DNA of 17,565 nucleotides from Candidatus Krumholzibacteriia bacterium (lineage in GTDB: Bacteria > Krumholzibacteriota > Krumholzibacteriia > WVZY01), in NCBI GenBank assembly GCA_036478295.1, contig JAZGDW010000295.1, positions 1 to 17,565 on the forward strand, read 5' to 3'. Shown here in pieces: positions 1,052-17,565 of the stretch (position 1 is its first letter; every line of letters begins with the position of its first letter). The notes beneath the pieces are model-generated. The model saw only the letters and a list, made by a program, of their open reading frames with translations, searched no databases and was not told where the DNA came from. Position numbers and translations under genes: made by a program.

Positions 1052-1993
1052 CTAGTCAGTGACTTCTTTGCCCGAGAGGACGTAGGCCAGGGGGTTGTGC
1101 TTGCGTCCGTCTTTGAGCACTTCGTAGTGGAGGTGGGTCGCGGTGGATTTTCCCGATGAGCCGACACGCGCGATAACGTCACCACGCTTCACGCGTTGAC
1201 CCTTCTTGACCAGAATCTTCGAGGTGTGAGCGTAACGCGTCACCAGACCGAACCCGTGAGAGATCTCGACGGTCAGGCCGAAAGCCGCCCACTTGCCAGC
1301 GAAGGTCACCACCCCATCGCCCGTCACAAGAATCGGGGTGCCGAGACGGGCCGAATAATCGACGCCGTAGTGGTTCGACGCGCGCCCCGTGATGGGATCC
1401 ATGCGGCGCCCGAACCGGCTGGACAGGTACCCTCTCGGAACCGGCCGGATCGACGGTGTGGCGTTCAGCCGCTTGTGCCTGTCGGAGAGGTGGCTGATAA
1501 TCTGGCCGTAGCTCTCCCGCTGGAGTTTCGCCTGCCGGACAAGCTTGTCGATATCCGCCTTGAGCCCGCTGACCGTTCCACGGGTTTTGTCATCGAGCAT
1601 GGACAGCGAGCGGACGTAGCCATAGTTCGGCCCACCAACGCCGACCTCGGCGATGTCTTCACTCATATCCTCCAGGTTGGCAAGGATGCGGGCTTTCTTC
1701 TGAAAATCGAAGTTTTGCTGGACGTGGTGCTCGAGTGCTCCGACCTGCTGCTGGAAATCCGTGAGCTGTCCCCTGAGCAGTCTGTTCTCTCGCTCCAGCC
1801 TCGAGACGCGGTAGGTATCTGTCAGATTCGACGAGTACTTGAGCAACACCACGGCACTCATCACCATCAATAACGCGATAGTTCCGAAAAGGCTGAATAC
1901 GAGCCACCTCCGAATACGGACAGTCTTGAGCCCGTCGTTCTCGGCCGGGACGTACATGAAGGTGAAATATCTATTGGCGTGGTTCATGGACAT
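1052..1993 (-). CDS. M23-family peptidoglycan DD-metalloendopeptidase with N-terminal TM helix and coiled coil
   Basis: HYGVD (HxxxD), TRYAH and TATHLHYEV (HxH) zinc motifs are intact; single TM segment WLVFSLFGTIALLMVMSAVVLL. Start uncertain (ATG 1993 or 1987; the track uses TTG 2002). Confidence 0.93.
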   Translation of the reverse strand: MSMNHANRYFTFMYVPAENDGLKTVRIRRWLVFSLFGTIALLMVMSAVVLLKYSSNLTDTYRVSRLERENRLLRGQLTDFQQQVGALEHHVQQNFDFQKKARILANLEDMSEDIAEVGVGGPNYGYVRSLSMLDDKTRGTVSGLKADIDKLVRQAKLQRESYGQIISHLSDRHKRLNATPSIRPVPRGYLSSRFGRRMDPITGRASNHYGVDYSARLGTPILVTGDGVVTFAGKWAAFGLTVEISHGFGLVTRYAHTSKILVKKGQRVKRGDVIARVGSSGKSTATHLHYEVLKDGRKHNPLAYVLSGKEVTD

Positions 1994-2012
1994 GCTCACC
2001 AAATTACCGGAT

Positions 2013-2041
2013 AGGCTACGGAGCTAAGCTGCTTTTGTCAA
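2013..2041 (-). promoter_or_regulatory. sigma-70-type promoter for the M23 gene
   Basis: Minus strand TTGACA (2041-2036), 17-nt spacer, TAGCCT (2018-2013), just upstream of the start codon. Confidence 0.7.
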
Positions 2042-2100
2042 GGATATTATCCATCGTCCCCTGGTAGGGAGCAAGGATTATACCAGGAACTTGGCCGTTG

Positions 2101-2141
2101 AAAAATAACAGGTTACCGGGTTTCTAACCCCGGTAACCTGT
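2101..2141 (-). terminator. Intrinsic terminator after the sigma factor gene
   Basis: Perfect 13-bp stem ACAGGTTACCGGG (2108-2120) / CCCGGTAACCTGT (2129-2141), 8-nt loop, followed on the minus strand by TATTTTT. Confidence 0.85.
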
Positions 2142-2183
2142 CGCTGGGCGTTGCACGCGTCGCTGATTGGGAATTTCTGGCCG

Positions 2184-3059
2184 TCAGGCCTCGATGTACC
2201 CCTTGAGGTATTTGGACCTCGATGAGTGACGGAGCCGCATGATGGCTTTTTCCTTGATCTGGCGGATGCGCTCCCTCGTGAGAGCGAGTTTCTTGCCGAT
2301 TTCTTCCAGAGTCATCGGTTGTTCCCCGCCATTCAGCCCGAAATAAAGGCTCAGAATAAGTTTTTCCCGTTCGGAGAGGGTGTTCAACGCTTTCTCCATG
2401 TCGTCGCTCAGCGCGTGCTCGAAGGTCTGGTCGTCGGGCATCCTCGCCTTGTCATCCACCAGGTAGTCGACCAGCGCGTTATCGTCCTGGTCGTTCGAGT
2501 AGGGATCGTCCAGAGACACGTGCGTGTTGGCGATGTGCATGGTGTCTTTGACTTCCGTCTCGGAAATCTTCAGCTTTTTGGCAATTTCTTCGGCACGCGG
2601 CGCACGGCCCAGTTCCTGATCGAGCTGGCGCGACGCCTTGCCGATTCGGTACAGCGTGCCGGCGCGGTTGAGCGGAAGGCGCACGATCCGCGAGTGTTCC
2701 GCCAGCGACTGCAGCATCGCCTGCCGGATCCACCACACCGCGTAGGAAATGAACTTGTAGCCGCGCTTTTCGTCGAAACGATGTGCGGCCTTGATCAAAC
2801 CAAGGTTACCGTCGTTGATCAAATCCTCGAGTGACAGGCCCTGATTTGCATACTGCTTGGCGATAGAAACCACGAAGCGCAGATTCGCCTTTACCAACTG
2901 ATCCAGCGCTCCCTCTTCACCTTCGCGAATACGGCGGGCAATTGCCTGTTCCCCTTCTCGCGACAGGAGCGGCGTCTTGTTGATCTCGTGCAGATAGAGA
3001 TCGAGACTACGGTTGCCGTTGTAGCTCTGTTTCTTTTCGCCCTTGTCGTTCTGCCTCAT
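2184..3059 (-). CDS. RNA polymerase sigma-70 factor, RpoD/SigA/RpoS-like, lacking region 1.1
   Basis: Region 1.2 SLDLYLHEINKTPLL; region 2 ANLRFVVSIAKQY, GNLGLIKAAHRFD, KFISYAVWWIRQ; region 4 TLEEIG...TRERIRQIKEKA. ATG 3059 behind AAGGA is preferred over ATG 3086. Confidence 0.95.
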   Translation of the reverse strand: MRQNDKGEKKQSYNGNRSLDLYLHEINKTPLLSREGEQAIARRIREGEEGALDQLVKANLRFVVSIAKQYANQGLSLEDLINDGNLGLIKAAHRFDEKRGYKFISYAVWWIRQAMLQSLAEHSRIVRLPLNRAGTLYRIGKASRQLDQELGRAPRAEEIAKKLKISETEVKDTMHIANTHVSLDDPYSNDQDDNALVDYLVDDKARMPDDQTFEHALSDDMEKALNTLSEREKLILSLYFGLNGGEQPMTLEEIGKKLALTRERIRQIKEKAIMRLRHSSRSKYLKGYIEA

Positions 3060-3109
3060 GGCGTCTTCCTTGGTTAATGGTCCCATACCGTCTGGATATA
3101 TTGCATGGG

Positions 3110-4630
3110 CTAGTCCTTATCCGGAATTACCGGTACGTACGTTGATGTCCTTCCTCGTTTGACGAGGAATGCGATGGGGTCTTTCCTGTCCCTAAGTTTC
3201 TTGGATATTGCCACGTACTCTTTCAAATTCACGACCCGCTGCGAGTACACTTCCGTGATGACGTCTCCCTCACGGATGTCCGCGTCACTCGCCGGGCTGC
3301 CTTCTTCCACCTCCACGACCACAACGCCATCCTGTCCCTGCTCGATCCTGAATCGTGCCCGCACCTCCGCCGAGCGAACGTCGTCGACCTGGATCCCAAG
3401 CCAGCTATCCTTGCTCTGCGACGTCGACGCGACGAGCTCGGGCGGGCTAGGTCTCTCGGTCAGGGTGATCATGACATCCTTCTTCTTTCCTTCGCGGACA
3501 ATCTGGAGCGGGACTTCCGTGCCGACCGGCGTGTTACCGACCATTAGTCGGAACCTCTGCGCATCCCTTACAAGGTTGTCCCGGTACTTCACGATGACAT
3601 CGCGCTTGAGCAGGCCCGCCTCGTCCGCCGGAGAATCCGGGACCACCTCGCGCACCAGGATGCCCTGATGGACCTTGAGTCCCAGTCCCTCCGCCAGGTT
3701 GCGGTTGAGCTCGGCGAGCTGGATGCCCATGAAACCGTACTGGACGCGCCCTTTCGAAATCAGCTGGTCACTGATGTTCTTGGCCATGTTCACCGGGATG
3801 GCAAAGCCGATGCCCTGGCCCGACGGGTTGATCGCCGTGTTGATCCCGATGGCCTCGCCCCTCAGGTTCACCAGCGGCCCACCGCTGTTTCCGAAGTTGA
3901 TCGATGCATCGGTCTGAATATAGTCCTGGTAGTCCGCAGTGCCCCCCATGATGCGCAGGTCGTTACGGCCCTTCGCGCTGATCACGCCCACGGTTACCGT
4001 ACCGGCCAGCTGACCGAACGGGGTGCCGATCGCCATGACCCAGTCGCCCACCATCATCTCGTCGGAATCGCCCAGTTCCACTACCGGCAAGTCCCCCTCG
4101 GCATCGATCTGGATGATCGCGATATCCGTGTGCTCATCCATACCGATCACGGTGGCCTCGTACTCCTTCTCGTCAGGTTTCTGTCCGAGAATCACGGTAA
4201 TCTTTTCCGCGTCCCGAATCACATGATGATTGGTCAGGACACGTCCCTTCTTGTCGATTATGAACCCGCTGCCCCCCCCGCCCAGCTGCCGGCGCGGGCG
4301 CTCGTCATCCGGCACCCTTTCTCTGAAGAAATCAAACGGTCCGAAGCCGTTTTGTCTCCGGCTGCGAGAAGAAGTGCGCTCGGTTCGGATAAACACGACG
4401 GCCGGTCGTACTTTTGCCGCCACGGCGGTAAATGTTGAATGAATACTTCCCGTTTGCGGGATGACCCGTGACTCAACGTCGGCAGATTTTTCCTGGGGCG
4501 ATGAAACGGTATCCGAAGTCACCAGAAGGTTGTACGTGAACCCGCCCAAAAAAAGCGCCGAACTCAACAAGAACAACTTCAGTGACTTACGTAAAGTTAC
4601 CATGCGGGTACTACCTGCATACCTGTTCAT
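3110..4630 (-). CDS. degP: Do/DegP (HtrA) periplasmic serine endoprotease with two PDZ domains
   Basis: GSGFII, TNHHV (His), TDIAII (Asp), IQTDASINFGNSGGPL (Ser), two PDZ domains (GFMGI...DSPA; WLGI...GSPA), N-terminal hydrophobic segment, GAGGA RBS. Confidence 0.95.
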   Translation of the reverse strand: MNRYAGSTRMVTLRKSLKLFLLSSALFLGGFTYNLLVTSDTVSSPQEKSADVESRVIPQTGSIHSTFTAVAAKVRPAVVFIRTERTSSRSRRQNGFGPFDFFRERVPDDERPRRQLGGGGSGFIIDKKGRVLTNHHVIRDAEKITVILGQKPDEKEYEATVIGMDEHTDIAIIQIDAEGDLPVVELGDSDEMMVGDWVMAIGTPFGQLAGTVTVGVISAKGRNDLRIMGGTADYQDYIQTDASINFGNSGGPLVNLRGEAIGINTAINPSGQGIGFAIPVNMAKNISDQLISKGRVQYGFMGIQLAELNRNLAEGLGLKVHQGILVREVVPDSPADEAGLLKRDVIVKYRDNLVRDAQRFRLMVGNTPVGTEVPLQIVREGKKKDVMITLTERPSPPELVASTSQSKDSWLGIQVDDVRSAEVRARFRIEQGQDGVVVVEVEEGSPASDADIREGDVITEVYSQRVVNLKEYVAISKKLRDRKDPIAFLVKRGRTSTYVPVIPDKD

Positions 4631-4746
4631 CGTGCAATCCTCGACTCTGTATGTGACCTGGAGTGCCGTGGGGAGCTTCCTCCATACTTCCCGTGCCGGA
4701 GGAATCTCGTAGTGAGGCCTGGATCCGAGCTATCGGTTCATTCATA

Positions 4747-4775
4747 AGTGTAGACCAAAAAACACACGCTGTCAA
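4747..4775 (-). promoter_or_regulatory. sigma-70-type promoter for degP (and probably the sigma gene)
   Basis: Minus strand TTGACA (4775-4770), 17 nt, TACACT (4752-4747), about 115 nt upstream of the degP ATG. Confidence 0.78.
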
Positions 4776-5197
4776 GCTCCCACAACTGATTTAGTCGCTA
4801 CCGGTTGTTCTGATCACGGCAGCTCCAGCGGAGTACCCGGCCCGATACGCACCACTGCCCCGGGCATTGCGGAAATCTGCAAATTCGCTGCCAACACCCT
4901 CGGCAGCCGGTCCTCCGCCTGTGTTTCTACCCTCTTATACGGCCTCGGGTGCCCGAAGTTCCCCCGGGGCACTCAGGGTTCCTCGAAATCGCCGCTCCGC
5001 CGCCCGTCCTGGGGGCCGCCGTACGGACCGCGCGCGGGCTCGAGCCCGCCGCAGTACCGTGCCGCCACCGTGAAAACGCGGACCATTGCGAAAACGGGGT
5101 TGCCCTCTCTTGCCGTTGTTGATAGAAAGAGGCATTGAAACATCGACCGCTGGTCACCCCGGACTACAGATCGGTGCCCTCGGGCGAAGAGGACAGC

Positions 5198-5944
5198 ATG
5201 GATTCTTACTCGAACATTTCGTCCCGTCAACTCCTGTTCCTGGCTGACACCCATTTTCGCAATCCCCGACTCGAGGCGGAAGCGGAAAGGCGCCGCCGAT
5301 TTATCGGTTTTCTCGAAACAGTACCGGACGGCGCCGCGCTGTTCCTGCTCGGCGATATATTCGACTTCTATTTCGAGTACAGGTCGGTCGTGCTCAAACG
5401 CTACTTCGATATCCTCTACGCGCTGCGCAGGTCCGTCGAACGCGGGGTCGAGGTTCACTTTCTCGGCGGCAACCACGATTTCTGGGTGGGTGATTTCCTC
5501 AGCGAAGAAATCGGCCTCACGTTGCACGGCGGCGACGACATTCTTATCGACAGCCAGGGCAGAAAAATATGCTGCTCGCACGGCGACCTCGTGCTGCCGA
5601 ACGACGGCAGCTACCGCAGGATCCGGGCGATCATCCGCAACCGCCACGTTATCAACGCTGCCAGGCTGCTCCATCCCGATCTAATGAGCGCGATCGCAAC
5701 CCGTATTTCAAGCGGAAGCAAGAACAGAAAGCGCGGTGCGCTGGCTGACATGGCCAATCATCTCTGTGATATCGCACCCGGGGAATTTTTTTCGAAGGGG
5801 AACGACGTCTTCATTATCGGCCACGTACACTACCCCCTGCACCGCGTCTATGACGACCGGGATTTCATGATCGTCGGGGATTGGATCGAGAGCTACACAT
5901 ACGGCAAGCTCGAGGGCGGCAGGCTGAGTCTCGAGAAGGTCTAG
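5198..5944 (+). CDS. lpxH: UDP-2,3-diacylglucosamine diphosphatase (lipid A biosynthesis)
   Basis: Calcineurin-like motifs LADTH, LGDIFDFYFEY, GNHDFW, SHGD, GHVH, GDW. ATG 5198 behind GAGGAC. Confidence 0.88.
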   Translation: MDSYSNISSRQLLFLADTHFRNPRLEAEAERRRRFIGFLETVPDGAALFLLGDIFDFYFEYRSVVLKRYFDILYALRRSVERGVEVHFLGGNHDFWVGDFLSEEIGLTLHGGDDILIDSQGRKICCSHGDLVLPNDGSYRRIRAIIRNRHVINAARLLHPDLMSAIATRISSGSKNRKRGALADMANHLCDIAPGEFFSKGNDVFIIGHVHYPLHRVYDDRDFMIVGDWIESYTYGKLEGGRLSLEKV

Positions 5945-5949
5945 CCAGG

Positions 5950-6879
5950 CTAGATCCGCAACGAGAAGCCAAACCGGTGGCTATCGCCCAGGTCGTTGCT
6001 GATCAACTGAACCGCGTAGTCGAACAGGAATTCGCGGTATTTCACCCCGAGCCCGAAGGTGCCTCCCTGCGAATCGTATCCGCCTTTGAATCCCGCGCGC
6101 AGGTACACGCGTCGCGCGTAGGCGAACTCGATCCCGATGTGCTGCTTGGCGTCGCCGTCATTCGGAATCACCCCATCGAACGCAATAAGAACCGCCCCGT
6201 TCAGCGACGGGTAGTCTCGCTCGAAACTCACCCCGAGCCTCGCGAGGGCGGGCAGGGGAAACTTCGTCCCGGCGAACCGGTCATCGTTGAAACTCATCTT
6301 GGCCCCGATGTTCGACACGGCCGCGGCGAACTTCACACCGGGGATGCGGGTTATGTGATAGAGGCCCGCATCGAACGCCACACCGCTCGCCGTGAAATCG
6401 TCGATGTTCTCGTAGACGAGCTTGGCGACGATCCCCGCGGAGAGGTCGGGCAGGACGTAGCGCGAGAAACCAACGGCGGCGGAAACGTCGTAGGCCGAAA
6501 ACGTCCCCAGTGGTCCAGAGGTCGGTACGTTTATGAACCGTTCCATGTCGTCCATGTACAGCCCCACAAACGCGAGTCCAATCGTCCCGTAGTCCGTCTC
6601 GTGCGTCAACGCAGCCTGCTCTAGCCTGATGGACTGAAAATACTCGTTGTGCATGACGGTGGCGTTCGTGCCGAGAACCGCGGCCATGGCACCGGGATTC
6701 CAGAACACGCTGGTCGCGTCCTTGGCAACGGCGACATACGCTTCTCCCATGCCGGACGCCCTGGCGCCCAGCCCGAAACGCAGGAATAGCGCCCCGGCCT
6801 CACCGGGCTCGCTCGCGGACGACGGGGAAGGAATCAGCCCAACAAGCAGGGCAAACGCAACGTGTCGAAACCGGCACAT
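5950..6879 (-). CDS. PorV/PorQ-family (UPF0164-like) outer-membrane beta-barrel
   Basis: Signal peptide, then the family-typical FL-x-FGLGARASGMGEAYVAVAKDATSVFWNPG, alternating beta strands, FDAG, and C-terminal DYA...LGDSHRFGFSLRI; GGAG RBS. Confidence 0.88.
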   Translation of the reverse strand: MCRFRHVAFALLVGLIPSPSSASEPGEAGALFLRFGLGARASGMGEAYVAVAKDATSVFWNPGAMAAVLGTNATVMHNEYFQSIRLEQAALTHETDYGTIGLAFVGLYMDDMERFINVPTSGPLGTFSAYDVSAAVGFSRYVLPDLSAGIVAKLVYENIDDFTASGVAFDAGLYHITRIPGVKFAAAVSNIGAKMSFNDDRFAGTKFPLPALARLGVSFERDYPSLNGAVLIAFDGVIPNDGDAKQHIGIEFAYARRVYLRAGFKGGYDSQGGTFGLGVKYREFLFDYAVQLISNDLGDSHRFGFSLRI

Positions 6880-6892
6880 AAGGATCTCCCTC

Positions 6893-9800
6893 TCACCTCA
6901 GGATGGCAAAGGTCTTGACGAACGTGTCGGTTCCTCCCGAGCTCTTCACCGACAAGCGCATCAGGTACACGCCGCTCTTGAACCGCGCGATATTTATCAC
7001 TTCGTCGAAAGGCGTCTGGATGGTACCCGATGGATTGGCCAGAAAACTCCGTGACAACACCCGCTCGCCTTCGAGATTGTAAATTCCTACGTCGATGGTG
7101 GCACTTTGGTTGATAACAATCCTGGCGTGGAGCTCGTCACCTCTGACCGGGTTTGGGTAGACAATGAATGAGCTTTCCACCACGACGTTGTTTGCCTTCC
7201 GCAGCGGGTGAGGCTCGCTCACGCGTCCGCGCCGCAGTCCGTCGTGATGGTAGGAGAACCAGAAGCTGGTGGTGAGCGCGCTCGACCCCGGCAGGGTCTG
7301 GAGGGACAGCACCATCTGGTTCGCCGATATGATTATATCAGAAACCGAGTCAAAGGTCTCCAGCAAAGGCACCGATCCCAGGGCAATCAGCGTCAGCTCG
7401 CCGTCGTTGTCCAGGTCCGCGACCGCAGCGGTCGCGCCCATCGAGGCGGGACCGACCCGCGGAAACGTTGCCACCGGCGAGCCGTCCGAGTGATAGCCGT
7501 AAATCGTTCCCTCTCGGGTCGGAAACAGGATGTCCATGCGACCGTCTCCGTCCACGTCGCCGATCAGCGGGCTGTTGAGCCGCGCCTCGAAGCGGAGCGG
7601 TGGGAAACTCCCCACGCTTATCTGGCGAATCGGTTGCGGCCAGTTCGTCGCCAGCCTGCCGTTGTTCTCGAAAAGGTAGAAATAGTCGTTGTCCCACACG
7701 GCGATCTCGAGCGCTCCGTCCCCGTCGACGTCTCCCAGCGCCGGTGACGACGGATTGGTCGATCGCAGGGTAACGATCTCGGTCCTGCGCGGCGGCAAGG
7801 GTGGGGTCGTCAGCGGTGACCCGAGCTGCCCGCCTATCGACCACGCCTGTCCGAAACCACGCGGGGACAGCGTGTGGATCACCAGGCGCCCGTCGGGTAG
7901 CGCCACCACGACTTCGTCGTAGCCGTCCTCGTTGAGATCGCCCACAGCCGGCGCGGACACCGGCGGAAAAGCCGCTCGTAGTGCCCCCAGCGGCGCGAAG
8001 GTCACCGTCTCCACCGTCTGCCCGAAGCCGAACAACGAGATACCGTAGACCCCGCGTACCGTATCCGTCCACGCCGCCACGATACCCGGCACACCCACCT
8101 GCTCCACCCGGCCGTATGAGAGCGGCGCGCAGTATTGCGCCTGAACGTGGAGCGGGGCCGGCGAGATCAACGTCGGCGGTACCTTGAGCCCCCGGTCGTC
8201 CAGGAAGCCGATGAAGATCGAGTCGCCGACACTCTCGACAACGGCAATCTCATTACGTGCATCCCCCGCGACGTCGACGAGCATCGGCGGGGCAGCCAGA
8301 GGCGCACCCTGGTAGAGCACTCCGATGGTGGCTGCATTCCCGTCACCGTCGACTACCTCGGTGCCGTCTCCCTTCCACGCGTAGACGGTGCCGTCCTCGC
8401 TGCAGGCGACGATCTCGTCGTCACCGCCGCCATCGATGTCTCCAAAAGCCGGTGCCCCTCGCCACACGGCGCCGGGCGCCGAGAAAAACGGCTCGATGGT
8501 TGCCGGGTCGAGGTCTTGATCCAGGAACTCCGTCCCGTCCGGACGAAACGCGTACACCCGGCCCGAGTCGGCAAACACGACGATTTCCGTGTCGCCGACG
8601 GCGTCGAGATCAAACGCCGTCGGCGGCTGAAAGGACCCCACATCCGGCCAGCGCACGCGGATGTCCGCGTACGGTCTGGCAAATTCCACGGTGCAGGTCA
8701 TAAAGGAGTCGGCCGCCGAAATATCGCGGATGGTGATTCCGGTGCGCGCGCCGGAGTTGGCCAATGATGAGGGATTGGTACCGGGACCAAACGTCGCGTT
8801 GTGGCCCGCACGAAAACTGTCGAAATGGCTGCCGAATGAAAAACGGTTGTTGCCTCCGACGTCGAGGTCCGGAACACCGTCGGCTTCCTCGAGGTCGACG
8901 CCCTTGCGCGACACAAAGTCGTTGGGTAGAAAGCCGCTCTCAAAATTCGTGCGGATGACGTTTTCGTCTACATGCCACACGTAGACGCCGGAACCCGTGA
9001 GCCCCGGTGGGTTGGTGAACACGGTCAAGAAGAAGTCAAACTCGGCTCCTCCAAGCGAGTCGGTGTTGTCCGGTACCCGGTTGCTGTCGAAATCCGAGAA
9101 CGTAAACATGCCGTCAAAATCCGTATCGTGGACACGGTTCACGACCAGAAAATACTCGCTCTCGGTGATTGGTATTTTCAGACAAGCGGTGTCAAGTGCC
9201 GCGGAGGTGTTGATATCCCGCAGACGAAAGCGGCCGTCTGTGTCCACCAGCAAAGGATCCAGCCACCCGGCGAGGATACGGTTGAAGGCGCTGGGGAACC
9301 CGGGCACGAACCCGTTCACGATGAAGAGGCCGCTGCTCATCAGGTCGAAGTCGCCGACTCCCCGCGAATCGGGAAACCCCGCCGGCGTCGAATCGAAGAG
9401 CGGCACCAGACCGAGGCGGCTGCCGGTAACGAACGCCCAGATGCCCAGCGAACCCACGACGATCCCGTCCTGGTTGGGACTGGCGGGTAAAACCATGAAG
9501 TTGTCCAGCAGAAAGGGCTCTCCACCGAGGCTGTCCGCCGTCTGAAGTCCGGCGACCGTACTGTCGATGAATGCCGCGTCGATGTCGTCCTGGTCCATGA
9601 AAACCGAAAATATCTGCTCGCGCGAGTTGCCGAGGACGTCGGTCTCCTGCCCCGGTCCCGCGTGGAGCAACATGACGGTATCGTAGAGGGAAAAATCTTC
9701 GTCGGCATCCGCGGAGTCGATGACAGATTCCATCATCTCCACCACCCGCCCATCCTGCAGCACCTCGTCACCGTAGTAACCCATGTTCCGCGGCAGCGTG

Positions 9801-10192
9801 TAGAGTTTCGGTGTGACTTTCCAGGTGATAACGAGTCGCTGGAGTGACGCACCACTGAAGTACTGTTCGAGGTGTCGGACTTCGTTCGCGAAGTACGTAG
9901 AGTCGCGGACCTCCACGCGCCGGCTACCGGGCTGACCGCCCATGAGGCTGTCGGCGAACTGGACCTGGATGGCGAGGACCCGCAGTGTGGTCGCCGCGCG
10001 CACGCTTCCCTGCAGGTAGTTGCGTACCGCGGCCCTCTGGTAACGGTTGAGCGCGGCCGTCTTGCCGCCCAGCAGCGGCCTGGAAGGGTACTCCTGCGAG
10101 CGGTAGGTCGGCGCGACGGTTTCCGCGTACGCCGGGAGCACGGCGGTACACGCGAGAAGAGACATTATGACCAGAGAACGGATAAATCGCAC
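6893..10192 (-). CDS. Secreted M6 (immune inhibitor A)-like domain + FG-GAP/VCBS repeats + T9SS type A C-terminal sorting domain; predicted catalytically inactive
   Basis: M6 hallmarks VLAIQVQFAD, YFSGAS, LLHAGPGQE, DFDLMSSG (Met-turn), SAFNRILAGWL, EYFLVVNR, GVYVWHVDE, VDLEEADG; several DxDxDGxxE/D repeats; CTD VYPNPV...IYNLEGE...SGVYLMRL. HExxH is replaced by FVTGS. Confidence 0.85.
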   Translation of the reverse strand: MRFIRSLVIMSLLACTAVLPAYAETVAPTYRSQEYPSRPLLGGKTAALNRYQRAAVRNYLQGSVRAATTLRVLAIQVQFADSLMGGQPGSRRVEVRDSTYFANEVRHLEQYFSGASLQRLVITWKVTPKLYTLPRNMGYYGDEVLQDGRVVEMMESVIDSADADEDFSLYDTVMLLHAGPGQETDVLGNSREQIFSVFMDQDDIDAAFIDSTVAGLQTADSLGGEPFLLDNFMVLPASPNQDGIVVGSLGIWAFVTGSRLGLVPLFDSTPAGFPDSRGVGDFDLMSSGLFIVNGFVPGFPSAFNRILAGWLDPLLVDTDGRFRLRDINTSAALDTACLKIPITESEYFLVVNRVHDTDFDGMFTFSDFDSNRVPDNTDSLGGAEFDFFLTVFTNPPGLTGSGVYVWHVDENVIRTNFESGFLPNDFVSRKGVDLEEADGVPDLDVGGNNRFSFGSHFDSFRAGHNATFGPGTNPSSLANSGARTGITIRDISAADSFMTCTVEFARPYADIRVRWPDVGSFQPPTAFDLDAVGDTEIVVFADSGRVYAFRPDGTEFLDQDLDPATIEPFFSAPGAVWRGAPAFGDIDGGGDDEIVACSEDGTVYAWKGDGTEVVDGDGNAATIGVLYQGAPLAAPPMLVDVAGDARNEIAVVESVGDSIFIGFLDDRGLKVPPTLISPAPLHVQAQYCAPLSYGRVEQVGVPGIVAAWTDTVRGVYGISLFGFGQTVETVTFAPLGALRAAFPPVSAPAVGDLNEDGYDEVVVALPDGRLVIHTLSPRGFGQAWSIGGQLGSPLTTPPLPPRRTEIVTLRSTNPSSPALGDVDGDGALEIAVWDNDYFYLFENNGRLATNWPQPIRQISVGSFPPLRFEARLNSPLIGDVDGDGRMDILFPTREGTIYGYHSDGSPVATFPRVGPASMGATAAVADLDNDGELTLIALGSVPLLETFDSVSDIIISANQMVLSLQTLPGSSALTTSFWFSYHHDGLRRGRVSEPHPLRKANNVVVESSFIVYPNPVRGDELHARIVINQSATIDVGIYNLEGERVLSRSFLANPSGTIQTPFDEVINIARFKSGVYLMRLSVKSSGGTDTFVKTFAILR

Positions 10193-10424: not shown

Positions 10425-11663
10425 CTAGCGCTTCCCACGCTTTTTCGCCTTGCCATCGCCCGAACGGGACTTGGCGGCAGCGACCTTACTCGCGCGGGAA
10501 CTTGTCCTCGCTTTCGAACTTGTCTTCACACGCGCACTCTGTTTCTTCAAGCTTCTCTTGTTGAGTGTCCGCACGTGCTTGCTGCTCTTCTCAGTTCTCT
10601 TCGTAGTCACCTTGCGCTCTTTGAGCTGACGACGCATCGCCGTGATCTCACCCTTGCCCTTCACGTATGTGTCCTTGCTCGAGCGTACAACCTTGCGCGA
10701 GGTTTTGCTTCTCGCACCGGACCTCACGGACTTCTCGTGAACGGCGCGCTCCTTGCGCGAGACCCGATTCGCGACCCGTGACTTCGTCTTCACGACGTTT
10801 TTGCCGCGTTGTTTGGCGTCATAACTGTGTATCTCTCTCTTCGCAGCTTTGTAACGCGTTTTGTGTTCGCGCTTGCTATGGTGAGCGATCCTCGTGTACT
10901 CGCCCACTTTGTGCTTGATCCTGTACTGCGGGTGCAGCACTTGATGCGGGGCTCTCGCGTGCAGGTTGTAGTGCCTGTACACGGAGCAGTTCCCCCGGCA
11001 GTACTGGCGGGCACCGTAGTAATCGTGCCAGCCGACGCAGAGGTATCTCGGGTAGCGCACGTACTCCCTGACGTAGAAGCGCGCGTGGCTGATGCCGATG
11101 AGATACCGGTCACACCTTCCAGCGATCAGGCTCAGGTAGAACCTCTTCGACGCCACGTACGGATCACCGTAGATCCGAAAGCCGAAGCCGGGCCCGAAGA
11201 TGTCCACGCCGTAATAGCTGTAATCGAACGGAACCGGGCTCGATACCGCGAAGGCATAGGCGACGCCGCGGTCAAAACCGTGTCCGTAGCCGAAGTCGCT
11301 GAGGTAGATCTTGTAGACACGCCCTCCACGAACGTAGGCGTTATCGTCGACCGAGTACGGGTGCACCACGTGAATGAAGCCCTCGGTGTCGACCACGTAG
11401 ACCGTCGCAAAGCAGCTGCGCGAGGCCCGAAAATACAGAACGATATCGTCGGCCGACGGGTAAACGTCGTACTCGTAGCGGCCTCCATCGTACTCGTCGT
11501 CGTAGTCGCCCTGTCCCTGCCGGTCCAGCCACACCTGAACATCCGCCGGAGACGAGGTGTAGGCGAAGCTGACCCGCACGCCGGCGCTCGCGGGAGCCAC
11601 CAGCATCGGGGACAAAACCAGCATTCCGATGACGAACGTTAATGCGTTAGCTGTCTTTCTCAT
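10425..11663 (-). CDS. Secreted DUF4384-domain protein with Tyr/Cys-rich middle and Lys/Arg-rich C-terminal tail
   Basis: Signal peptide ending ASA; VQVWLDR...Y...IVLYFRASRSCFATVYVVDTEGFIHVVHP resembles DUF4384; GGAGG RBS; ATGA overlap with the upstream gene at 11660-11663. Confidence 0.75.
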   Translation of the reverse strand: MRKTANALTFVIGMLVLSPMLVAPASAGVRVSFAYTSSPADVQVWLDRQGQGDYDDEYDGGRYEYDVYPSADDIVLYFRASRSCFATVYVVDTEGFIHVVHPYSVDDNAYVRGGRVYKIYLSDFGYGHGFDRGVAYAFAVSSPVPFDYSYYGVDIFGPGFGFRIYGDPYVASKRFYLSLIAGRCDRYLIGISHARFYVREYVRYPRYLCVGWHDYYGARQYCRGNCSVYRHYNLHARAPHQVLHPQYRIKHKVGEYTRIAHHSKREHKTRYKAAKREIHSYDAKQRGKNVVKTKSRVANRVSRKERAVHEKSVRSGARSKTSRKVVRSSKDTYVKGKGEITAMRRQLKERKVTTKRTEKSSKHVRTLNKRSLKKQSARVKTSSKARTSSRASKVAAAKSRSGDGKAKKRGKR

Positions 11664-12533: not shown

Positions 12534-12548
12534 GCAATCTGTGTGCCA
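12534..12548 (-). promoter_or_regulatory. sigma-54 (-24/-12) promoter P1 for the lipoprotein-DUF4384 operon
   Basis: Minus strand TGGCACACAGATTGC is an exact TGGCAC-N5-TTGC match, 16 nt upstream of ATG 12517, with an AT-rich patch at 12586-12615. Confidence 0.85.
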
Positions 12549-12829
12549 GACGCTAGGCGTTGGGCGGCAGTCGCCGGGGAAGGCAAGTTAATCTATTATT
12601 CAACAATTGGTTATGAAACAGGACTGGGCGCGAAAACGGGTCTCTTGGGGGTGGCTTGGCCCTGAAAAACAGCCCCCGGAGCGTGTAACAGGGACGACAA
12701 CTGTCCTACAAAGAGGACGTTTTTGGCAGGCAGGAGCAGGCGACGCGGAGCCTGGCGAGGGCGGCAGATCCTTAGTACAAGAACCTGGAGGGTCGATGGC
12801 ATTACGGAACAGCCGCCGGACGGTGCGCG

Positions 12830-12935
12830 GTTGGGTTGTTGACGGAACCGTCGCGGGAACAAGTCAGGGGGCGCCTGTTGGGTTGTTGACGGAGCCGTCG
12901 CGGGAGCGAGCGAGGATCATCCGCCGGAGGCGGAT
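12830..12935. repeat. REP-like cluster: two ~31-nt direct repeats plus a GC hairpin
   Basis: GTTGGGTTGTTGACGGA(A/G)CCGTCGCGGGA(A/G)C at 12830-12860 and 12877-12907 (2 mismatches), each containing a GACGG-NN-CCGTC palindrome; ATCCGCC-GGA-GGCGGAT at 12919-12935. Confidence 0.75.
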
Positions 12936-12964
12936 AGCCGAGCGAAGTGGAGCGCGGTGTGGGC

Positions 12965-13234
12965 ATAATAAAGAAACTGACGTTCACATCTCCTTTTGGA
13001 GTTAAAGTCGAGACCCCACCTCTCGAAATTAACGTTACTCCGCAAAGCCAGCAGCTATGCTTTGGAGATTATGTGAACGCCAGCTTCTCTTGACCTTTCG
13101 GTCACAATGCTGGAGGAGAAAAGTAGCTCGTCTTTTCCCCGCTCCGAGTCCAGGATTGGATTCTTGGGGAACAATCCCCAAGAATCCGTTCCCCCACCGA
13201 ATGGAAGTTCCTTACGCACGGGACAACTTCCGAA
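12965..13234 (-). ncRNA. Candidate sigma-54-dependent structured non-coding RNA
   Basis: Starts at the predicted +1 of promoter P2; five consecutive stem-loops (13203-13231, 13158-13187, 13110-13153, 13091-13104 with a GAAA loop, 12970-13090); G-U pairing favours the minus strand; no credible ORF. Confidence 0.55.
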
Positions 13235-13245
13235 GCATTTACGTG

Positions 13246-13260
13246 GCAATCGGCGTGCCA
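13246..13260 (-). promoter_or_regulatory. sigma-54 (-24/-12) promoter P2
   Basis: Minus strand TGGCACGCCGATTGC is an exact TGGCAC-N5-TTGC match, about 200 nt downstream of the enhancer-binding protein stop codon. Confidence 0.82.
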
Positions 13261-13307
13261 GTAGTTGTCACCAACGCCAAAATCGTTGACGCTCTTATCA
13301 GACAATA

Positions 13308-13320
13308 TAACAATAAGTTA
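13308..13320. promoter_or_regulatory. IHF-like site upstream of P2
   Basis: TAACAATAAGTTA matches WATCAANNNNTTR with 1 mismatch, in an AT-rich patch about 50 bp upstream of the -24 box, where IHF typically binds sigma-54 promoters. Confidence 0.45.
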
Positions 13321-13446
13321 GGAGGGATAACGCCGCTGTCATTGCAATCGCTTTTGGGGCGTTTTCAGGCGAAGTTAAGAAGATTTTACAGAACGACACC
13401 ACGGCGTCGATGCAATCCACAGTGAGTGCATGAGTTAAGAGGGAGA

Positions 13447-13468
13447 AAAAGTTTTTATAAAAACTTTT
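13447..13468. promoter_or_regulatory. Perfect 22-bp AT-rich palindrome at the stop of the enhancer-binding protein gene
   Basis: AAAAGTTTTTATAAAAACTTTT is its own reverse complement; function unknown. Confidence 0.45.
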
Positions 13469-16400
13469 AATAACAGCGGAGGTTGAAACGTTTGATCTTG
13501 GAAAGGATATTGGGGTAGCTGATACCCAGGGCGGTCGCCGCCTGGGATTTGTTCCAGCCGCTTCTTTCTAGTGCTGCCTGGATTTCTGTTTTCTCCAACC
13601 GATCGATCTGGTCGCGGAGGGTAACGTTCTTGCGCGCGCCGCGCTTTGCCGCCGGTGATACGATCTCGGACGGCAAGTGGCGCACATCGAGAGTTTCGCC
13701 ATCATCCGCCAGGATGACGGCGCGCTTGACGACCTTGTCCAACTCGCGAACGTTGCCCGCCCAATGAAAGTCCCTCAGCATGTCGAGCGCCTCGTCCGTG
13801 ATGTCGGTGATGTCCTTCCCCATCTCGCACGAGTATTTCCTTAAGTAGTGAAAGAACAGCAGCTCAATGTCCTCCCGCCGCTTGCGAAGCGGGGGAACGG
13901 TCAGTGGAAAATCATTGATGCGGTAGAAAAAATCTTCAAGGAAACGTCCCTCGTGGCACAGGGACAGCAGGTCCGCCTTGGACGCGCAGATGACCCGCAC
14001 GTCGACCGGCCTCATCTCATTGGAGCCGACCTTTCTGATCTTACTCGTATCCAGGAACTGCAGCAGCTTCCCCTGCATCGCGAGCGTGGTCTTGCCGATC
14101 TCATCGAGAAAAATGGTCCCGCCGTCCGCCTGGTTCAGCAACCCGCTCTTGTCCACCGTCGCCCCGGTGAAGGAGCCTTTGGCATGACCAAAGAGCTCGG
14201 ATTCGAGGAGTGACTCCGGCATGGCCGCGCAGTTGATGTGCACGAAAGGCTTGTCCCGCCTCTCGCTCAGGAGATGGACGGCGTACGCGATGAGTCCCTT
14301 GCCCGTACCCGTCTCTCCCTGCAGGAGCACAGTCGCGTTGGAGTGCGCCACTCGCTCCGCGAGGTTGAGTAGTTTGATCATCTCAATGTTGTTGGTAACG
14401 ATGCTGTCGAAGCCGCTTGCCGAGGGCCTGGCCTTCGGTTCCCGGCGCCTCTCGTTGCGCGCCAGCTCGTATACCGAGAGCGAGATAAGACGAGAATACG
14501 CCCCTACGAAGTGCAGGACCTCCTGGCCAATCGGAACGCGATGAGGACCGGGCTCCTGATTCATGAACACCACGCCGAGGGCATCGTTTTCAAAACCGAG
14601 TTCCTGAAACAACAACTTGCCCAGCTGGATATCCAGCTGCTCGCCGTCTCCGTTCAGACCGGTGTCGTCTGCATCCCGGATCATGAGACCCTGATCCGGC
14701 GCCGTGCCAGCCTCGGACAAGTACCACGACAGAATGGCCTTCGCTTCGCGCGCACGGAGGTTTTCGCGGCACACCACTTCAAACCCCTTGCTGCGACCCT
14801 TGGGGATAGCAACGAACCCGTTCTGCGCATTCGCCTTTTCCAAAATGAGCTTCAGCGACGAACTGAGACCCGCGACCAGTTTGTCGCGCGAGCGCAGACC
14901 GCTCTGGGCATTGCCGAACATGGGAATCTGGTCCAGGACGCGGCGCGTATCGCGCGTCATCTTCGATTCGACCCGCGCCCGCATGGCCGCCAGCAGTTTC
15001 TGAAACTTTGCGTTCCGCTCCTCCTCGGCCAGCCGCCCCGCCTCATAGATGGCAAGGAGCGCATCGTCCAGATTGCCGAGGCGTTCTTCGACGACCGCCA
15101 ACAGAACCTGTGACATCATTTGCTCGCTGAATTCCTCGATCTTGCCGAAACCGACGATGCTTTCGGTCAGCAATTGCTTGGCCCTGATCAGCGTTTCCTG
15201 GTCGCGGCTCCTAAGATGGAAGCGCCCCAACCGCCTCTGTGAACTAAATTTCTCGAATTCGATACCGTACTGCTCGAACATGTCAACACTGGTCTTCAGA
15301 CTGACCGCCGCCACTTCAAACTCCCCCCTGCGCCGCTGGCACAGTCCGCGCGTCCGGTAGAAATAACCCAACTCGTAGAACTCTCCACAGGCGTTGGCAA
15401 TCTCGAGGCCTTCGTCGACGAAGGACAGCGCCTTGTCGACGTTTCCCTGCAGGAGGTGGGCATCGGCCACCCGCCGCAGTATCTCCGCCGTCACGTCGCC
15501 TTCCGGCGCTATACGGCGGGCCCGGCGAAGCCCGTTGTTCAGGTTGACCAGGGCCTCCTCAGGCTTGCCCAGCGCCAACATTAGCTCGCCGAGATACTCG
15601 TCGGCCAGGGCGGCCTCACGTTCGTACCCCAACTCGTTGGCCATGGCCTGACCCCGCAGGATGTTCTTCTCGGCCTTGCAGAAATCCCCGCAGGCGATGT
15701 GGGTCCGGCCCTGCATGAGCACGGCCTTGGCGAGCTTTGCCTGGTCGCCGAAGCGCTCGGCCATGTTGCCAGCGGTTGCGAAACACGTTAGCGCCTCGCT
15801 GAAACGCCTCAGCTTCGCGTAAACCACGCCGAGGTTGAGCTGGACCCGAATGAGGTGTTGCGTGTGGCCCAGTGATTTGGCCAGGTCGAGTGACTTCGAC
15901 AGCGAGGCCAGCGCACGATTCCAACGGCAAGCGTTCTTATGAAGCAGTCCGAGGTTGTTATAGACAATGGCGATCCCCAGCCGGTCTTCGATCCGGCGGT
16001 AGGTGGACAGCGCGTCCATGAAGAAGTCTTCGGCCTCACTGGCCAAACCGATACGATGGTAGCAGTTGGCGAGGAGCTTCTGGATATCTCCGACTTCCCT
16101 GTGCTCGGTCGAGTGTTTCAGCCTGCGGTAGGCGCTGAACCCGAGCTTCAACGCGTCGTTGTAGCTTCCCCTGGCGAGCAGGCTCTCCGCTTCCCTCAGC
16201 TCAATCTTGCCCAGGGCCTCGGCCGGCGCAGGATCGTCGAGCAGCACCCGGGCACGGTCGAGAAACTTCTGCGCCTGTTTGTAGTTACCCTTGCTGCGGT
16301 AACAGTCGCCTATGTGGAGAAGAATTCTGTAGCGATCTGGGGTATCGTTTAGATCAGGAGACTGCAGCGCCTCCTGGAAGTACTCGATGGCGGTCGAGTA

Positions 16401-16517
16401 GTTCTCCGTAGCGAGATGCATCAGACCGACCTCTTCGCTGGGAGCGTAGATCGATTCTGTGCTTCGCTTCTTGCGGTTGTGCTGGAGCCTATCGCGATCG
16501 TCCCGTGCGTTAGACAT
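13467..16517 (-). CDS. sigma-54 enhancer-binding protein: TPR array, GAF-like region, AAA+ domain, Fis-type HTH
   Basis: About 500 aa of TPR-like repeats (e.g. AIVYNNLGLLHKNACRWNRALASLSKSL); Walker A GETGTGK, INCAA, ESELFGHAKGSFTGA (GAFTGA variant), Walker B FLDEIG, FLEDFFYRIN, WAGNVREL, C-terminal WNKSQAATALGIS. No receiver domain. Confidence 0.95.
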   Translation of the reverse strand: MSNARDDRDRLQHNRKKRSTESIYAPSEEVGLMHLATENYSTAIEYFQEALQSPDLNDTPDRYRILLHIGDCYRSKGNYKQAQKFLDRARVLLDDPAPAEALGKIELREAESLLARGSYNDALKLGFSAYRRLKHSTEHREVGDIQKLLANCYHRIGLASEAEDFFMDALSTYRRIEDRLGIAIVYNNLGLLHKNACRWNRALASLSKSLDLAKSLGHTQHLIRVQLNLGVVYAKLRRFSEALTCFATAGNMAERFGDQAKLAKAVLMQGRTHIACGDFCKAEKNILRGQAMANELGYEREAALADEYLGELMLALGKPEEALVNLNNGLRRARRIAPEGDVTAEILRRVADAHLLQGNVDKALSFVDEGLEIANACGEFYELGYFYRTRGLCQRRRGEFEVAAVSLKTSVDMFEQYGIEFEKFSSQRRLGRFHLRSRDQETLIRAKQLLTESIVGFGKIEEFSEQMMSQVLLAVVEERLGNLDDALLAIYEAGRLAEEERNAKFQKLLAAMRARVESKMTRDTRRVLDQIPMFGNAQSGLRSRDKLVAGLSSSLKLILEKANAQNGFVAIPKGRSKGFEVVCRENLRAREAKAILSWYLSEAGTAPDQGLMIRDADDTGLNGDGEQLDIQLGKLLFQELGFENDALGVVFMNQEPGPHRVPIGQEVLHFVGAYSRLISLSVYELARNERRREPKARPSASGFDSIVTNNIEMIKLLNLAERVAHSNATVLLQGETGTGKGLIAYAVHLLSERRDKPFVHINCAAMPESLLESELFGHAKGSFTGATVDKSGLLNQADGGTIFLDEIGKTTLAMQGKLLQFLDTSKIRKVGSNEMRPVDVRVICASKADLLSLCHEGRFLEDFFYRINDFPLTVPPLRKRREDIELLFFHYLRKYSCEMGKDITDITDEALDMLRDFHWAGNVRELDKVVKRAVILADDGETLDVRHLPSEIVSPAAKRGARKNVTLRDQIDRLEKTEIQAALERSGWNKSQAATALGISYPNILSKIKRFNLRCY

Positions 16518-16569
16518 ATCGTCGAGCCCTCAATCTGGTTTGCTCAGCAACAAGAACGAATTTCTGAGA

Positions 16570-16860
16570 TCAAAACATTCTATGGAACAGCAAATACATC
16601 CACCAAATTTTTGCCCCGGACCTGGTCTGAGGCAAGCCGCCCACCGTGAAGCGGGTGTGCTTGTCGCCTTTGAGACCAAGATCATCTGCATCCCCTTGAT
16701 CACCGTCACCGGACCCTAATGGACCACCTGGGTCGGTGTTCGGAGTGATAATTATGGTGGGAGAATCATCGATGCTAGGGGATTTCGCAGAAGGCATACT
16801 GGCAGGATATACGAGCAGTACCGCGAGCACGGCTATCAGTATGAAACATGCCCGTTTCAT
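16570..16860 (-). CDS. Small secreted protein / putative signalling pro-peptide (96 aa)
   Basis: Clear Sec signal MKR-ACFILIAVLAVLLVYP-ASMPSA, AGGAAGGAG RBS, its own promoter, 52 nt upstream of the co-oriented TPR regulator. Confidence 0.8.
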   Translation of the reverse strand: MKRACFILIAVLAVLLVYPASMPSAKSPSIDDSPTIIITPNTDPGGPLGSGDGDQGDADDLGLKGDKHTRFTVGGLPQTRSGAKIWWMYLLFHRMF

Positions 16861-16942
16861 CCGACCATCATCTCCTTCCTAACCGATTAAGACTTTACTG
16901 GCCCTCAAGAGGGCGATGAACAACGAATTACCCATCTAACAG

Positions 16943-16972
16943 AATATAATCAGTCACCTTAGAATCTGTCAA
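16943..16972 (-). promoter_or_regulatory. sigma-70-type promoter for the peptide / TPR-regulator operon
   Basis: Minus strand TTGACA (16972-16967), 18 nt, TATATT (16948-16943). Confidence 0.7.
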
Positions 16973-16999: not shown

Positions 17000-17565
17000 C
17001 TAGTCGTTTTGTTCGCCGTCATCACGGGGACGTTTGTACGATATTCCGTATTTTTCAAGCTTTTTGTAAAGATTGCTCCGCTGCATACCCAGCTTACGCG
17101 CGGTCTTGCTCACGTTGTACCCGTAGGTCTTGAGCTTGAGCAGGAAGAACTCTTTCTCCGTGGCGTCCCTGAACTCGGTGTACGTTTCCTTCTCGAGGAA
17201 CGGGTCCTCGAGATTCCTGGCGGACCCGAGCTGCGGCAGGTCGCCGACGTCGATCGTCGGTCGATGGGTCAGGATCACCAGGCGCTCGATCAGGTTCTTC
17301 AGCTCCCGGATGTTCCCAGGCCAGTTGTACTCGCGGAGTTCGTCCAACGCGCGCTTTGTCAGCTTCTTCGGACGTTGACCGAGCTCCGCCGCAACTGACG
17401 CGAGGAAATGGTCCACCAGGAGCGGCAGATCGGAAACGCGTTTCCTCAGGGGCGGTATCTGGATGGGAACGACGTTCAAGCGGTAGAAAAGATCCTCCCG
17501 AAAGCCGCCCTCCCGGCTCTCCTGCGCCAGGTTCTTGTTCGTCGCGGCGAGGACACGCACGTCGA
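17000..17565 (-). CDS. NtrC/NtrX-family sigma-54-interacting regulator, C-terminal part (5' end outside the window)
   Basis: DVRVLAATNKNL, FREDLFYRLNVVPI, WPGNIRELKNLIER, HTH YNVSKTARKLGMQRSNLYKKL; the frame is open to the window edge. Confidence 0.93.
   Translation of the reverse strand, partial: DVRVLAATNKNLAQESREGGFREDLFYRLNVVPIQIPPLRKRVSDLPLLVDHFLASVAAELGQRPKKLTKRALDELREYNWPGNIRELKNLIERLVILTHRPTIDVGDLPQLGSARNLEDPFLEKETYTEFRDATEKEFFLLKLKTYGYNVSKTARKLGMQRSNLYKKLEKYGISYKRPRDDGEQND

Follow-up and report, generated by a model that had tools for sequence, protein, structure and literature searches.

The 17,565-nt stretch of DNA analysed in this study, hereafter the window, is contig JAZGDW010000295.1 of assembly GCA_036478295.1, and it carries a putative regulatory circuit whose parts lie on the minus strand (Table 1). 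A sigma-70-type promoter, located next to the C-terminal part of a response regulator gene, is followed by the gene for a small exported protein of 96 aa and, after a gap of 52 nt, by the gene for a 1016-aa sigma-54 activator with an N-terminal TPR region (hereafter the activator). Downstream of it lie two exact sigma-54 promoters (TGGCAC-N5-TTGC), P1 in front of a structured non-coding RNA (RNA1) and P2 in front of envelope genes. A preliminary description of the same DNA had listed these elements and proposed a new signalling system in which the activator senses a secreted peptide and drives both the RNA and an envelope operon; the genes and promoters were present where it had placed them. 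The arrangement of small gene and activator proved to be real and is conserved throughout the phylum, and the cassette, RNA1 and the feedback pairing of RNA1 with the activator mRNA are well supported by sequence comparison. The locus may represent a new peptide-controlled gene switch. As a whole, it is read here, with slightly less than even confidence, as a two-activator regulatory island in which a peptide-gated TPR activator is subject to small RNA (sRNA) feedback.

Table 1. Features of the locus and their positions in the window.
Feature	Position	Strand	Remarks
PorV/PorQ family outer-membrane protein	5950..6879	-	NF033709 above own cut-off
M6-like metalloprotease-fold protein	6893..10192	-	FG-GAP repeats, type IX secretion system (T9SS) sorting tail; profile matches
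Exported DUF4384 protein	10425..11663	-	basic tail; Pfam
FN3-like lipoprotein, first gene after P2	11660..12517	-	start 12517 or 12484; lipobox-like Cys
Sigma-54 promoter P2	12534..12548	-	exact box, conserved just before FN3 gene
Enhancer type 2, before P2	12702..12719	.	TGTCC-N8-GGACA (= TGTC-N10-GACA); GTC-N10-GAC in 25/38 P2 regions
Dispersed intergenic repeat copy	12796..12960	+	outside the circuit; 40 places, 30 contigs, E ≤ 1e-8
RNA1, structured non-coding RNA, ~265 nt	12968..13231	-	long stem, U-tract at end; predicted ends
RNA1 3' hairpin	13010..13024	-	G-rich loop GGUGGGG, invariant in 17/17 loci of the order
RNA1 5' loop seed	13214..13227	-	complementary to activator codons 3-7; 9-11 Watson-Crick pairs, 17/17 loci
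Sigma-54 promoter P1	13246..13260	-	exact TGGCAC-N5-TTGC box
Enhancer type 1, proximal copy	13374..13390	.	~130 nt before -24 box; best site there in many loci
Enhancer type 1, distal copy	13456..13472	.	TATAAA-N5-TTTATA class; overlaps activator stop codon
Sigma-54 activator, 1016 aa	13467..16517	-	TPR, GAF-like, AAA+, Fis HTH
Predicted sRNA target site	16497..16510	-	activator codons 3-7; 14 contiguous pairs, 11 Watson-Crick
Small exported protein, 96 aa	16570..16860	-	signal peptide, variable linker, G56-D-A-D-D60 core, aromatic C-terminal stretch
Codons of GDADD core	16681..16695	-	putative mature signal; motif classes in 62 proteins
Sigma-70-type promoter of small-protein/activator operon	16943..16972	-	TTGACA-18-TATATT, 11/12 consensus matches
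NtrC/NtrX-type response regulator, C-terminal part	17000..17560	-	AAA lid + HTH_8; candidate P2 activator

The small exported protein and the activator

The genome carrying the window (3.5 Mb, 91% complete) contains rpoN and just 24 exact sigma-54 boxes. The N-terminal 670 residues of the activator, a single-copy core gene, matched 199 of the 201 genomes of the phylum at E ≤ 1e-10. The phylum set of 63 loci consisted of the best match from 59 of these 199 genomes, selected to cover all nine families with flanking DNA present, together with the window and three further loci. Counts for parsed activators and promoters refer to 61 loci and those for intact small proteins to 62; the order comparisons comprise the 17 loci of the same order as the window, and families are designated f3, f4, f5, f6, f7 and f9. 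The activator homologues were labelled Krumholzibacteria or Latescibacteria. A second lineage, with a full-length homologue at 28-38% identity, yielded 28 loci, several of them labelled Eisenbacteria; two weak matches were removed, and 23 of the remaining 26 had upstream DNA. Among 25 weaker loci from five genomes, 12 were judged to be paralogous, shorter TPR-sigma-54 activators; the remaining 13 either encoded TPR proteins of another kind or were missing their start.

The small gene was located directly upstream of the activator gene in 63/63 phylum loci, always in first place and with a gap of 26-124 nt; 62 of the small genes were intact, and in the remaining one a frameshift has moved the motif to the next reading frame. 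The adjacent small secreted ORF, which the preliminary description had proposed to look for in homologues, was also present in the Eisenbacteria-labelled set, where an upstream small gene with GDDDRW was found in 23/23 loci. On this point, for which the preliminary description had named absence of the ORF from homologues as refuting, the comparison did not refute the proposal. In addition, 10 of the 12 paralogues were preceded by an ORF that has a signal peptide and a Gly-acidic motif, as judged by eye. In the control comparisons within the same genome, a small exported ORF was found upstream of 0/14 other sigma-54 activators; such an ORF preceded 50 of 969 gene starts, and an ORF with the motif only one. 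The pair was kept where the response regulator was not adjacent (5/61 phylum loci and the Eisenbacteria-labelled loci), and it outlasts the loss of both this neighbour and the downstream operon. Elsewhere in the genome, no small exported ORF lies upstream of a sigma-54 activator of 1541 aa that shows internal similarity to TPRs (G000:C279:12993-17618, minus strand).

The promoter of the operon scored best among 13 sigma-70-like candidates in the window, and a loose TTGAC/-10 pattern was present upstream of the small gene in 59/62 loci. The 96-aa ORF starts with a basic N-terminus followed by a hydrophobic stretch. Its intact homologues were 91-118 aa long and carried K or R within the first five residues in 62/62 cases, an AxA-like cleavage site in 43/62 (located by simple rules) and a lipobox in two. 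The mean column identity was 16%, and past the signal peptide only the Gly-acidic core was conserved, with G56 invariant and D57 and D59 kept in at least 90% of the proteins. The core read GDADD in 29 proteins, GDPDD in 10, GDADG in seven and otherwise in 16; the aromatic C-terminal stretch was present in 35 of the 62. No Pfam or NCBIfam family matched the small protein.

The earlier view of the activator as a TPR/GAF-like/AAA+/HTH protein without a receiver domain was borne out by Pfam, a fold model and a family profile. The Pfam matches comprised TPRs, Sigma54_activat (707-872), an AAA lid (878-959) and HTH_8 (972-1011), with neither a receiver family nor GAF among them. The AAA+ domain spans 707-959 with a GSFTGA loop, and the Fis HTH lies at 972-1011. 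In the fold model, ~12 TPR-like helix pairs (residues 26-524) precede an alpha/beta domain at ~544-691. The domain order of NifA is GAF-AAA-HTH, and a single family-profile match to NifA spanned positions 532-1006; together with the alpha/beta domain, this match supports the term "GAF-like". Walker A and B motifs, a GAFTGA-type loop (GSFTGA, GAFTGA or GAFTNA in 61/61 loci), a Fis HTH, rpoN and a -24/-12 promoter were all found, as expected of a sigma-54 enhancer-binding protein. None of the best 25 NCBIfam models for the activator passed its own cut-off, the LuxO model scored 255 bits against a cut-off of 800, and no solved chain among the matches shown spanned both halves of the protein. In two f3 genomes (L073 and L075) the activator frames comprise ~870 aa compared with ~1020 aa, and the small gene, P1 and RNA1 are kept.

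Within the TPR region, R155, N188, K194, N195, N228, K235, R300 and R349 were invariant or near-invariant and placed on alternate helices. According to TPR geometry these residues would face the groove, and conserved groove-side Arg, Lys and Asn would suit an acidic ligand. Comparison of the modelled region with RRNPP structures, as suggested in the preliminary description, gave a divided result: the superhelix resembled Rap and NprR, and it equally resembled other TPR proteins, since the alignments to LGN, phage Rap, NprR, MalT domain III and an APC/C subunit were level at Z 25-26. Rap matched the TPR region at E 5e-8 to 2e-5. The model thus suggests a fold of the peptide-binding type, not specifically of RRNPP. 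The seven GDADG proteins, which have lost the last Asp, coincided with loss of R224 in the activator, a position occupied by Arg in 29 of 31 comparison loci; this co-change corresponds to one or two events on the tree, has counter-examples and is a hint only.

RNA1 and the start of the activator gene

Sequence comparison indicates that RNA1 is a real, conserved structured RNA. In the window it folds with z = -7.5. Among the 17 order loci, 14 of 35 pairs showed changes on both sides, a level reached in 0/500 shuffles, and slid alignments used as controls were just 33-55% paired. A P1-type box ~190-370 nt past the activator stop, followed by the GUGGGG motif, was found in 56/61 loci phylum-wide; the five misses were accounted for by a contig end, a degenerate box, rearrangement (two loci) and unreadable bases in one locus. 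Both the structured RNA and the downstream -24/-12 box put forward in the preliminary description are in this way conserved with the activator across the phylum, and they recur in the second lineage. In Rfam, no family matched the window at E ≤ 1 and none matched the loci of seven relatives at gathering score.

Several candidate identities for RNA1 were rejected. It does not appear to be a 6S RNA, as RF00013 had no match in the window and the 6S RNA of this genome lies on another contig. A CsrA sponge was dismissed because the genome, 91% complete, yielded no CsrA. Modelled on RosA, the G-rich loop could act as a sponge for a C-rich RNA, RNA2; however, just two of the 36 genomes examined in the order had RNA2, that of the window not being one of them, whereas the G-rich loop is invariant, which leaves this role unsupported for this lineage. 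RNA2 itself, ~95 nt in length, is located in the interval from RNA1 to P2 and has a sigma-70-like promoter of its own (L040-L058, 14 loci; L083; L084). In the example at L043:5839-5937 it forms a three-way junction with loops AUGGCGAGA and AUCCCCUCC; changes on both sides were seen in 15/32 pairs, and no Rfam match was obtained in the loci scanned. In f4, f6 and f7 a shorter version was seen, and downstream of RNA2 in L095 ~1.1 kb with a transposase-like ORF separates the RNAs from P2. In the Eisenbacteria-labelled loci L207-L232, the sigma-54 RNA holds a conserved hydrophobic ORF of 24-26 aa ~180 nt past the box (14/22 loci by a strict pattern), and a dual-function RNA is possible there.

The 5' loop of RNA1 pairs with activator codons 3-7 in 17/17 order loci, compared with ~5% of control windows in the same genes. 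Moreover, among the 153 columns with an invariant four- or six-fold degenerate residue in these loci, codons 4 and 5 were the only invariant codons. The perfect 10-mer of the seed occurs at 10 genomic places besides the RNA gene, and of these the activator alone has it within 20 nt of the start of a long ORF on the same strand. A base difference of RNA1 in the window lengthens the helix only; a compensatory change was rejected since the target is the same in relatives. When the G-rich loop was used to scan for targets, no start region stood out as convincing.

Outside the order, the activator start was matched in other ways. In f5 and f9 a different seed spans the AUG (12/12 loci), and in the Eisenbacteria-labelled loci a third seed pairs at codons 4-7 in 10/22, compared with 6.8% of controls. 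In f4, f6 and f7, TCGCC lies just 5' of the activator Shine-Dalgarno sequence in 16/17 loci (background, 4% of 1319 genome starts and 0/55 small-gene starts) and matches the loop of a second RNA that is itself present in 16/17; in f3, CCCCAC at the activator start in 5/7 loci (background 1.4%) matches the G-rich loop. Pairing within the first five codons can repress translation (PMC9486967), and the Vibrio Qrr RNAs pair with the mRNA of their own activator and repress luxO in a negative feedback loop (PMC3262071). The complementarity to codons 3-7 and the codon invariance point to a LuxO/Qrr-like negative feedback, in which RNA1 would repress translation of the activator.

Possible action of the small protein and control of the two promoters

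In the reading we favour, the sigma-70 operon would yield both the small protein and the activator from one transcript. The small protein would be exported by Sec and cut, and its G-D-x-D-D fragment, derived from neighbouring cells or from the cell's own periplasm, would re-enter the cytoplasm and bind the basic, Asn-lined TPR groove, altering the activity of the activator; taken jointly, these steps seem to us a little more probable than not. That the activator would bind the TATAAA-N5-TTTATA sites and fire P1, so that RNA1 is made, is very likely. Repression by RNA1 through codons 3-7, giving negative feedback, is likely as well, and the G-rich loop probably serves other targets. The P2 envelope/T9SS operon would probably be driven through another enhancer by another activator, presumably the response regulator. 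A more far-reaching version, in which the acidic fragment passes between cells to the TPR region of the AAA+ activator, the dedicated sRNA feedback had its seeds replaced several times in evolution and the paralogous pairs serve as separate channels, several to a genome, is tentative and somewhat unlikely.

Several points weigh against the favoured reading. No candidate was seen for the export and re-import route through the outer membrane, and both the binding of the fragment to the TPR region and the passage of a signal between cells are putative. The likeness of the TPR region is unspecific, LGN, the APC/C subunit and MalT domain III tying with Rap and NprR, and no RRNPP protein was among the best 50 Foldseek matches. 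Across the phylum the core motif varies little, as would be expected of a housekeeping signal more than of a code specific to kin. As for the RNA, a search of the genome (91% complete) did not reveal Hfq, RNA1 is missing downstream of the activator in the two rearranged loci, and plain duplex energy places the activator start at rank 21 among 3867 candidate starts. The match is shorter than 9 nt in 12/22 Eisenbacteria-labelled loci; in f3, f4, f6 and f7 RNA1 by itself pairs at background level, and the case there consists of 6-9-nt matches to the loop of the second RNA or to the G-rich loop. Finally, the loci are kin, and statistics on their counts are not those of independent events.

Alternatively, the small protein could report on export itself, with the intact cytoplasmic precursor acting as an anti-activator or co-activator that accumulates when Sec export slows and then binds the TPR region. 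FlgM and SecM provide the model for such logic. The single-copy core gene in 199/201 genomes, the slowly changing motif, the fixed gene order with its 26-124 nt gap and the neighbourhood of envelope and T9SS genes would all fit, and no crossing of two membranes would be needed. However, paralogous pairs with other motifs in one genome suggest separate channels rather than one gauge, and the genome has peptide importers (five family-5 binding proteins and a PTR2 transporter, none of them linked to the small protein). We consider an export monitor unlikely.

The assignment of the promoters in the favoured reading rests on their enhancers. The distal type-1 site scored best in the whole genome and was the sole one scoring at least 19, suggesting that RNA1 may be the main output of the activator. 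The training sets of the two matrices comprised 56 regions for P1 and 37 for P2, a 38th P2 region having been dropped as no FN3 gene came after it. The type-1 matrix scored 17.0 at P1 and -0.3 at P2, and the type-2 matrix 18.3 at P2 and -1.4 at P1; since each matrix scored its own training set, which tempers our reading, the cross-scores alone are a test. The recognition helix of the activator reads S-Y-P in 51/61 parsed loci, and that of the response regulator Q-R-S (QRSNLYKK). Activators with the S-Y-P helix have the TATAAA-type enhancer before P1, whereas an S-R-T/P helix in homologues goes together with tandem CGTC-N8-GACG in front of the sRNA promoter in 24/24 loci. The enhancer of the sRNA thus tracks the helix of the TPR activator, which assigns P1 to this protein and P2 to another activator, probably the response regulator, located within ~750 nt upstream in 56/61 loci. 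Of the original proposal that the activator drives both promoters, the P1 part fits this tracking and the P2 part does not, given the different conserved enhancer there; control by a different activator, such as the one encoded from position 17000, would apply to P2 and not to P1. The type-2 site is identical to the GlrR consensus TGTCN10GACA (PMC3045617).

The response regulator gene is apparently split over contig ends: a matching N-terminal half ends contig C65 (G000:C65:9988-10815), which suggests that C65 joins the window contig. Four further sigma-54 boxes of the genome have sites that resemble the enhancers of the window. At G000:C93:5047 and G000:C58:9493 (both plus strand), exact boxes have a weaker type-1-like palindrome ~130 nt upstream and are each followed by a purine-rich stretch with a common short motif, possibly marking sRNAs or targets. 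The boxes at G000:C133:5492 and G000:C241:1929 (both plus strand) have type-2-like sites; the latter is situated immediately in front of the gene for a further sigma-54 activator, which competes with the response regulator as a candidate for the P2 enhancer.

An exchange of roles, in which the response regulator drove P1 and RNA1, RNA1 silenced the TPR activator and the TPR activator drove P2, would account equally well for both enhancers and for the pairing of RNA1 with the mRNA; RNA1 would then link two pathways instead of closing a loop. The response regulator is adjacent in 56/61 loci, and GlrR, likewise a response regulator, drives the sRNA of the glmY locus (PMC3045617). This exchange is nevertheless quite unlikely, because the sRNA enhancer changes with the helix of the TPR activator in homologues that have no adjacent response regulator, and a GTC-type site would pair with an Arg-type helix, which is that of the response regulator and not of the activator. 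Control of both promoters by the TPR activator, with peptide sensing acting directly on the envelope operon, is very unlikely: the two boxes do come after the activator, and an FN3 gene is found downstream in 47/61 loci, but the P1 and P2 palindromes are unrelated, with near-zero cross-scores, and all seven f3 loci with P1 and RNA1 lack an FN3 gene in the fetched DNA. The FN3/DUF4384 operon is, on this evidence, probably not an output of the activator. QseG is a periplasmic accessory of a histidine kinase, and a QseG-like role for the small protein, which would serve the response regulator and never meet the TPR region, is highly improbable: the protein is exported, its gene is placed between response regulator and activator, and the glmY-qseE-qseG-qseF operon has a similar cast (PMC8745638), yet the small gene also accompanies TPR activators next to which no response regulator is encoded, its product has a lipobox in 2/62 cases only, and inspection by eye of 11 longer loci showed no neighbouring kinase gene.

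Relation to known systems and neighbouring genes

Intracellular peptide-pheromone receptors have been described from Gram-positive bacteria and their mobile elements. The five published criteria for RRNPP(A) systems include a propeptide of 10-100 aa (21-50 aa in validated cases), a receptor of 250-500 aa, TPRs and adjacency (PMC10075063), and the mechanism includes Sec export and Opp re-import (PMC9765709). In the window, the small protein falls within this size range, though its homologues reach beyond it, and TPRs and adjacency are both present; however, the activator is much longer than such receptors, so that the pair would be RRNPP-like in its working and not an RRNPP member. Like Rap-Phr, NprR-NprX, PlcR-PapR and AimR-AimP, it combines a small, putatively Sec-exported protein with an adjoining cytoplasmic TPR protein, a short conserved core in a variable precursor and a similar superhelix (Z 24-26 to Rap and NprR). 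It differs in that the TPRs are N-terminal to GAF-AAA-HTH and act via sigma-54, the motif is internal and acidic, the host is double-membraned, as judged from PorV and TonB-dependent receptors, and the module is chromosomal with no match among phage records.

As in LuxO-Qrr, a sigma-54 activator adjoins an sRNA gene whose product is complementary to the activator's own mRNA. In contrast, LuxO is a phosphorelay receiver protein, the Qrr RNAs need Hfq, of which the genome of the window gave no sign, and RNA1 is ~265 nt long with no Rfam match. The glmY-glrK(qseE)-qseG-glrR(qseF) locus likewise unites a sigma-54 sRNA gene, a small exported protein and a response regulator. There, TGTC-N10-GACA and IHF-like sites belong to the sRNA gene (PMC3045617); here, the TGTC-N10-GACA site precedes the envelope operon, no kinase is adjacent and the TPR activator has no counterpart in the glmY locus. 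IHF-like sites are a further feature that the two loci have in common. The C-terminal half of the activator is of the NifA type, and its TPR half ties with MalT domain III and LGN. By these comparisons the locus appears as an RRNPP-like input joined to a LuxO/Qrr-like output, recalling glmY-qseEGF and being a member of none of them. A published description of the system was not found in the literature searched, whose coverage left out most subscription papers. A profile search among cluster representatives was dominated by generic TPR proteins and gave no taxonomy, and an Atlas search matched only Eisenbacteria clusters, at 0.87-0.89, which is a lead only.

The peptide-sensing step would be the most valuable claim. 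If it holds, a TPR-gated sigma-54 ATPase with an exported precursor would carry peptide-pheromone logic over to another cell plan and to a new output mechanism, and the pairing would be present in nearly every genome of a double-membraned phylum. Even as an export monitor, the small protein would represent a new way of controlling such an activator. Small RNAs not described before are a further feature of the locus; no Hfq was found in this organism, and their predicted target is backed by codon-level selection and repeated seed replacement.

The envelope genes after P2 were present as initially described, but both Pfam matches behind their names are weak, that of FN3 (E 0.007) lying below its curated cut-off and that of DUF4384 reaching 26.8 bits against a cut-off of 27. 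The M6-like protein matched T9SSA_dep_M6i at E 3e-66, below cut-off, and Por_Secre_tail above cut-off; the best model for this T9SS cargo is an "inactivated" M6 family. The genes at 1052-5944 of the window are ordinary neighbours and encode an M23 peptidase, an RpoS/RpoD-like sigma factor and a DegP-like protease on the minus strand and a metallophosphoesterase on the plus strand. The dispersed repeat between RNA1 and P2 consists of tandem ~47-nt units with a terminal hairpin and resembles repetitive extragenic palindromic (REP) elements or miniature inverted-repeat transposable elements (MITEs).

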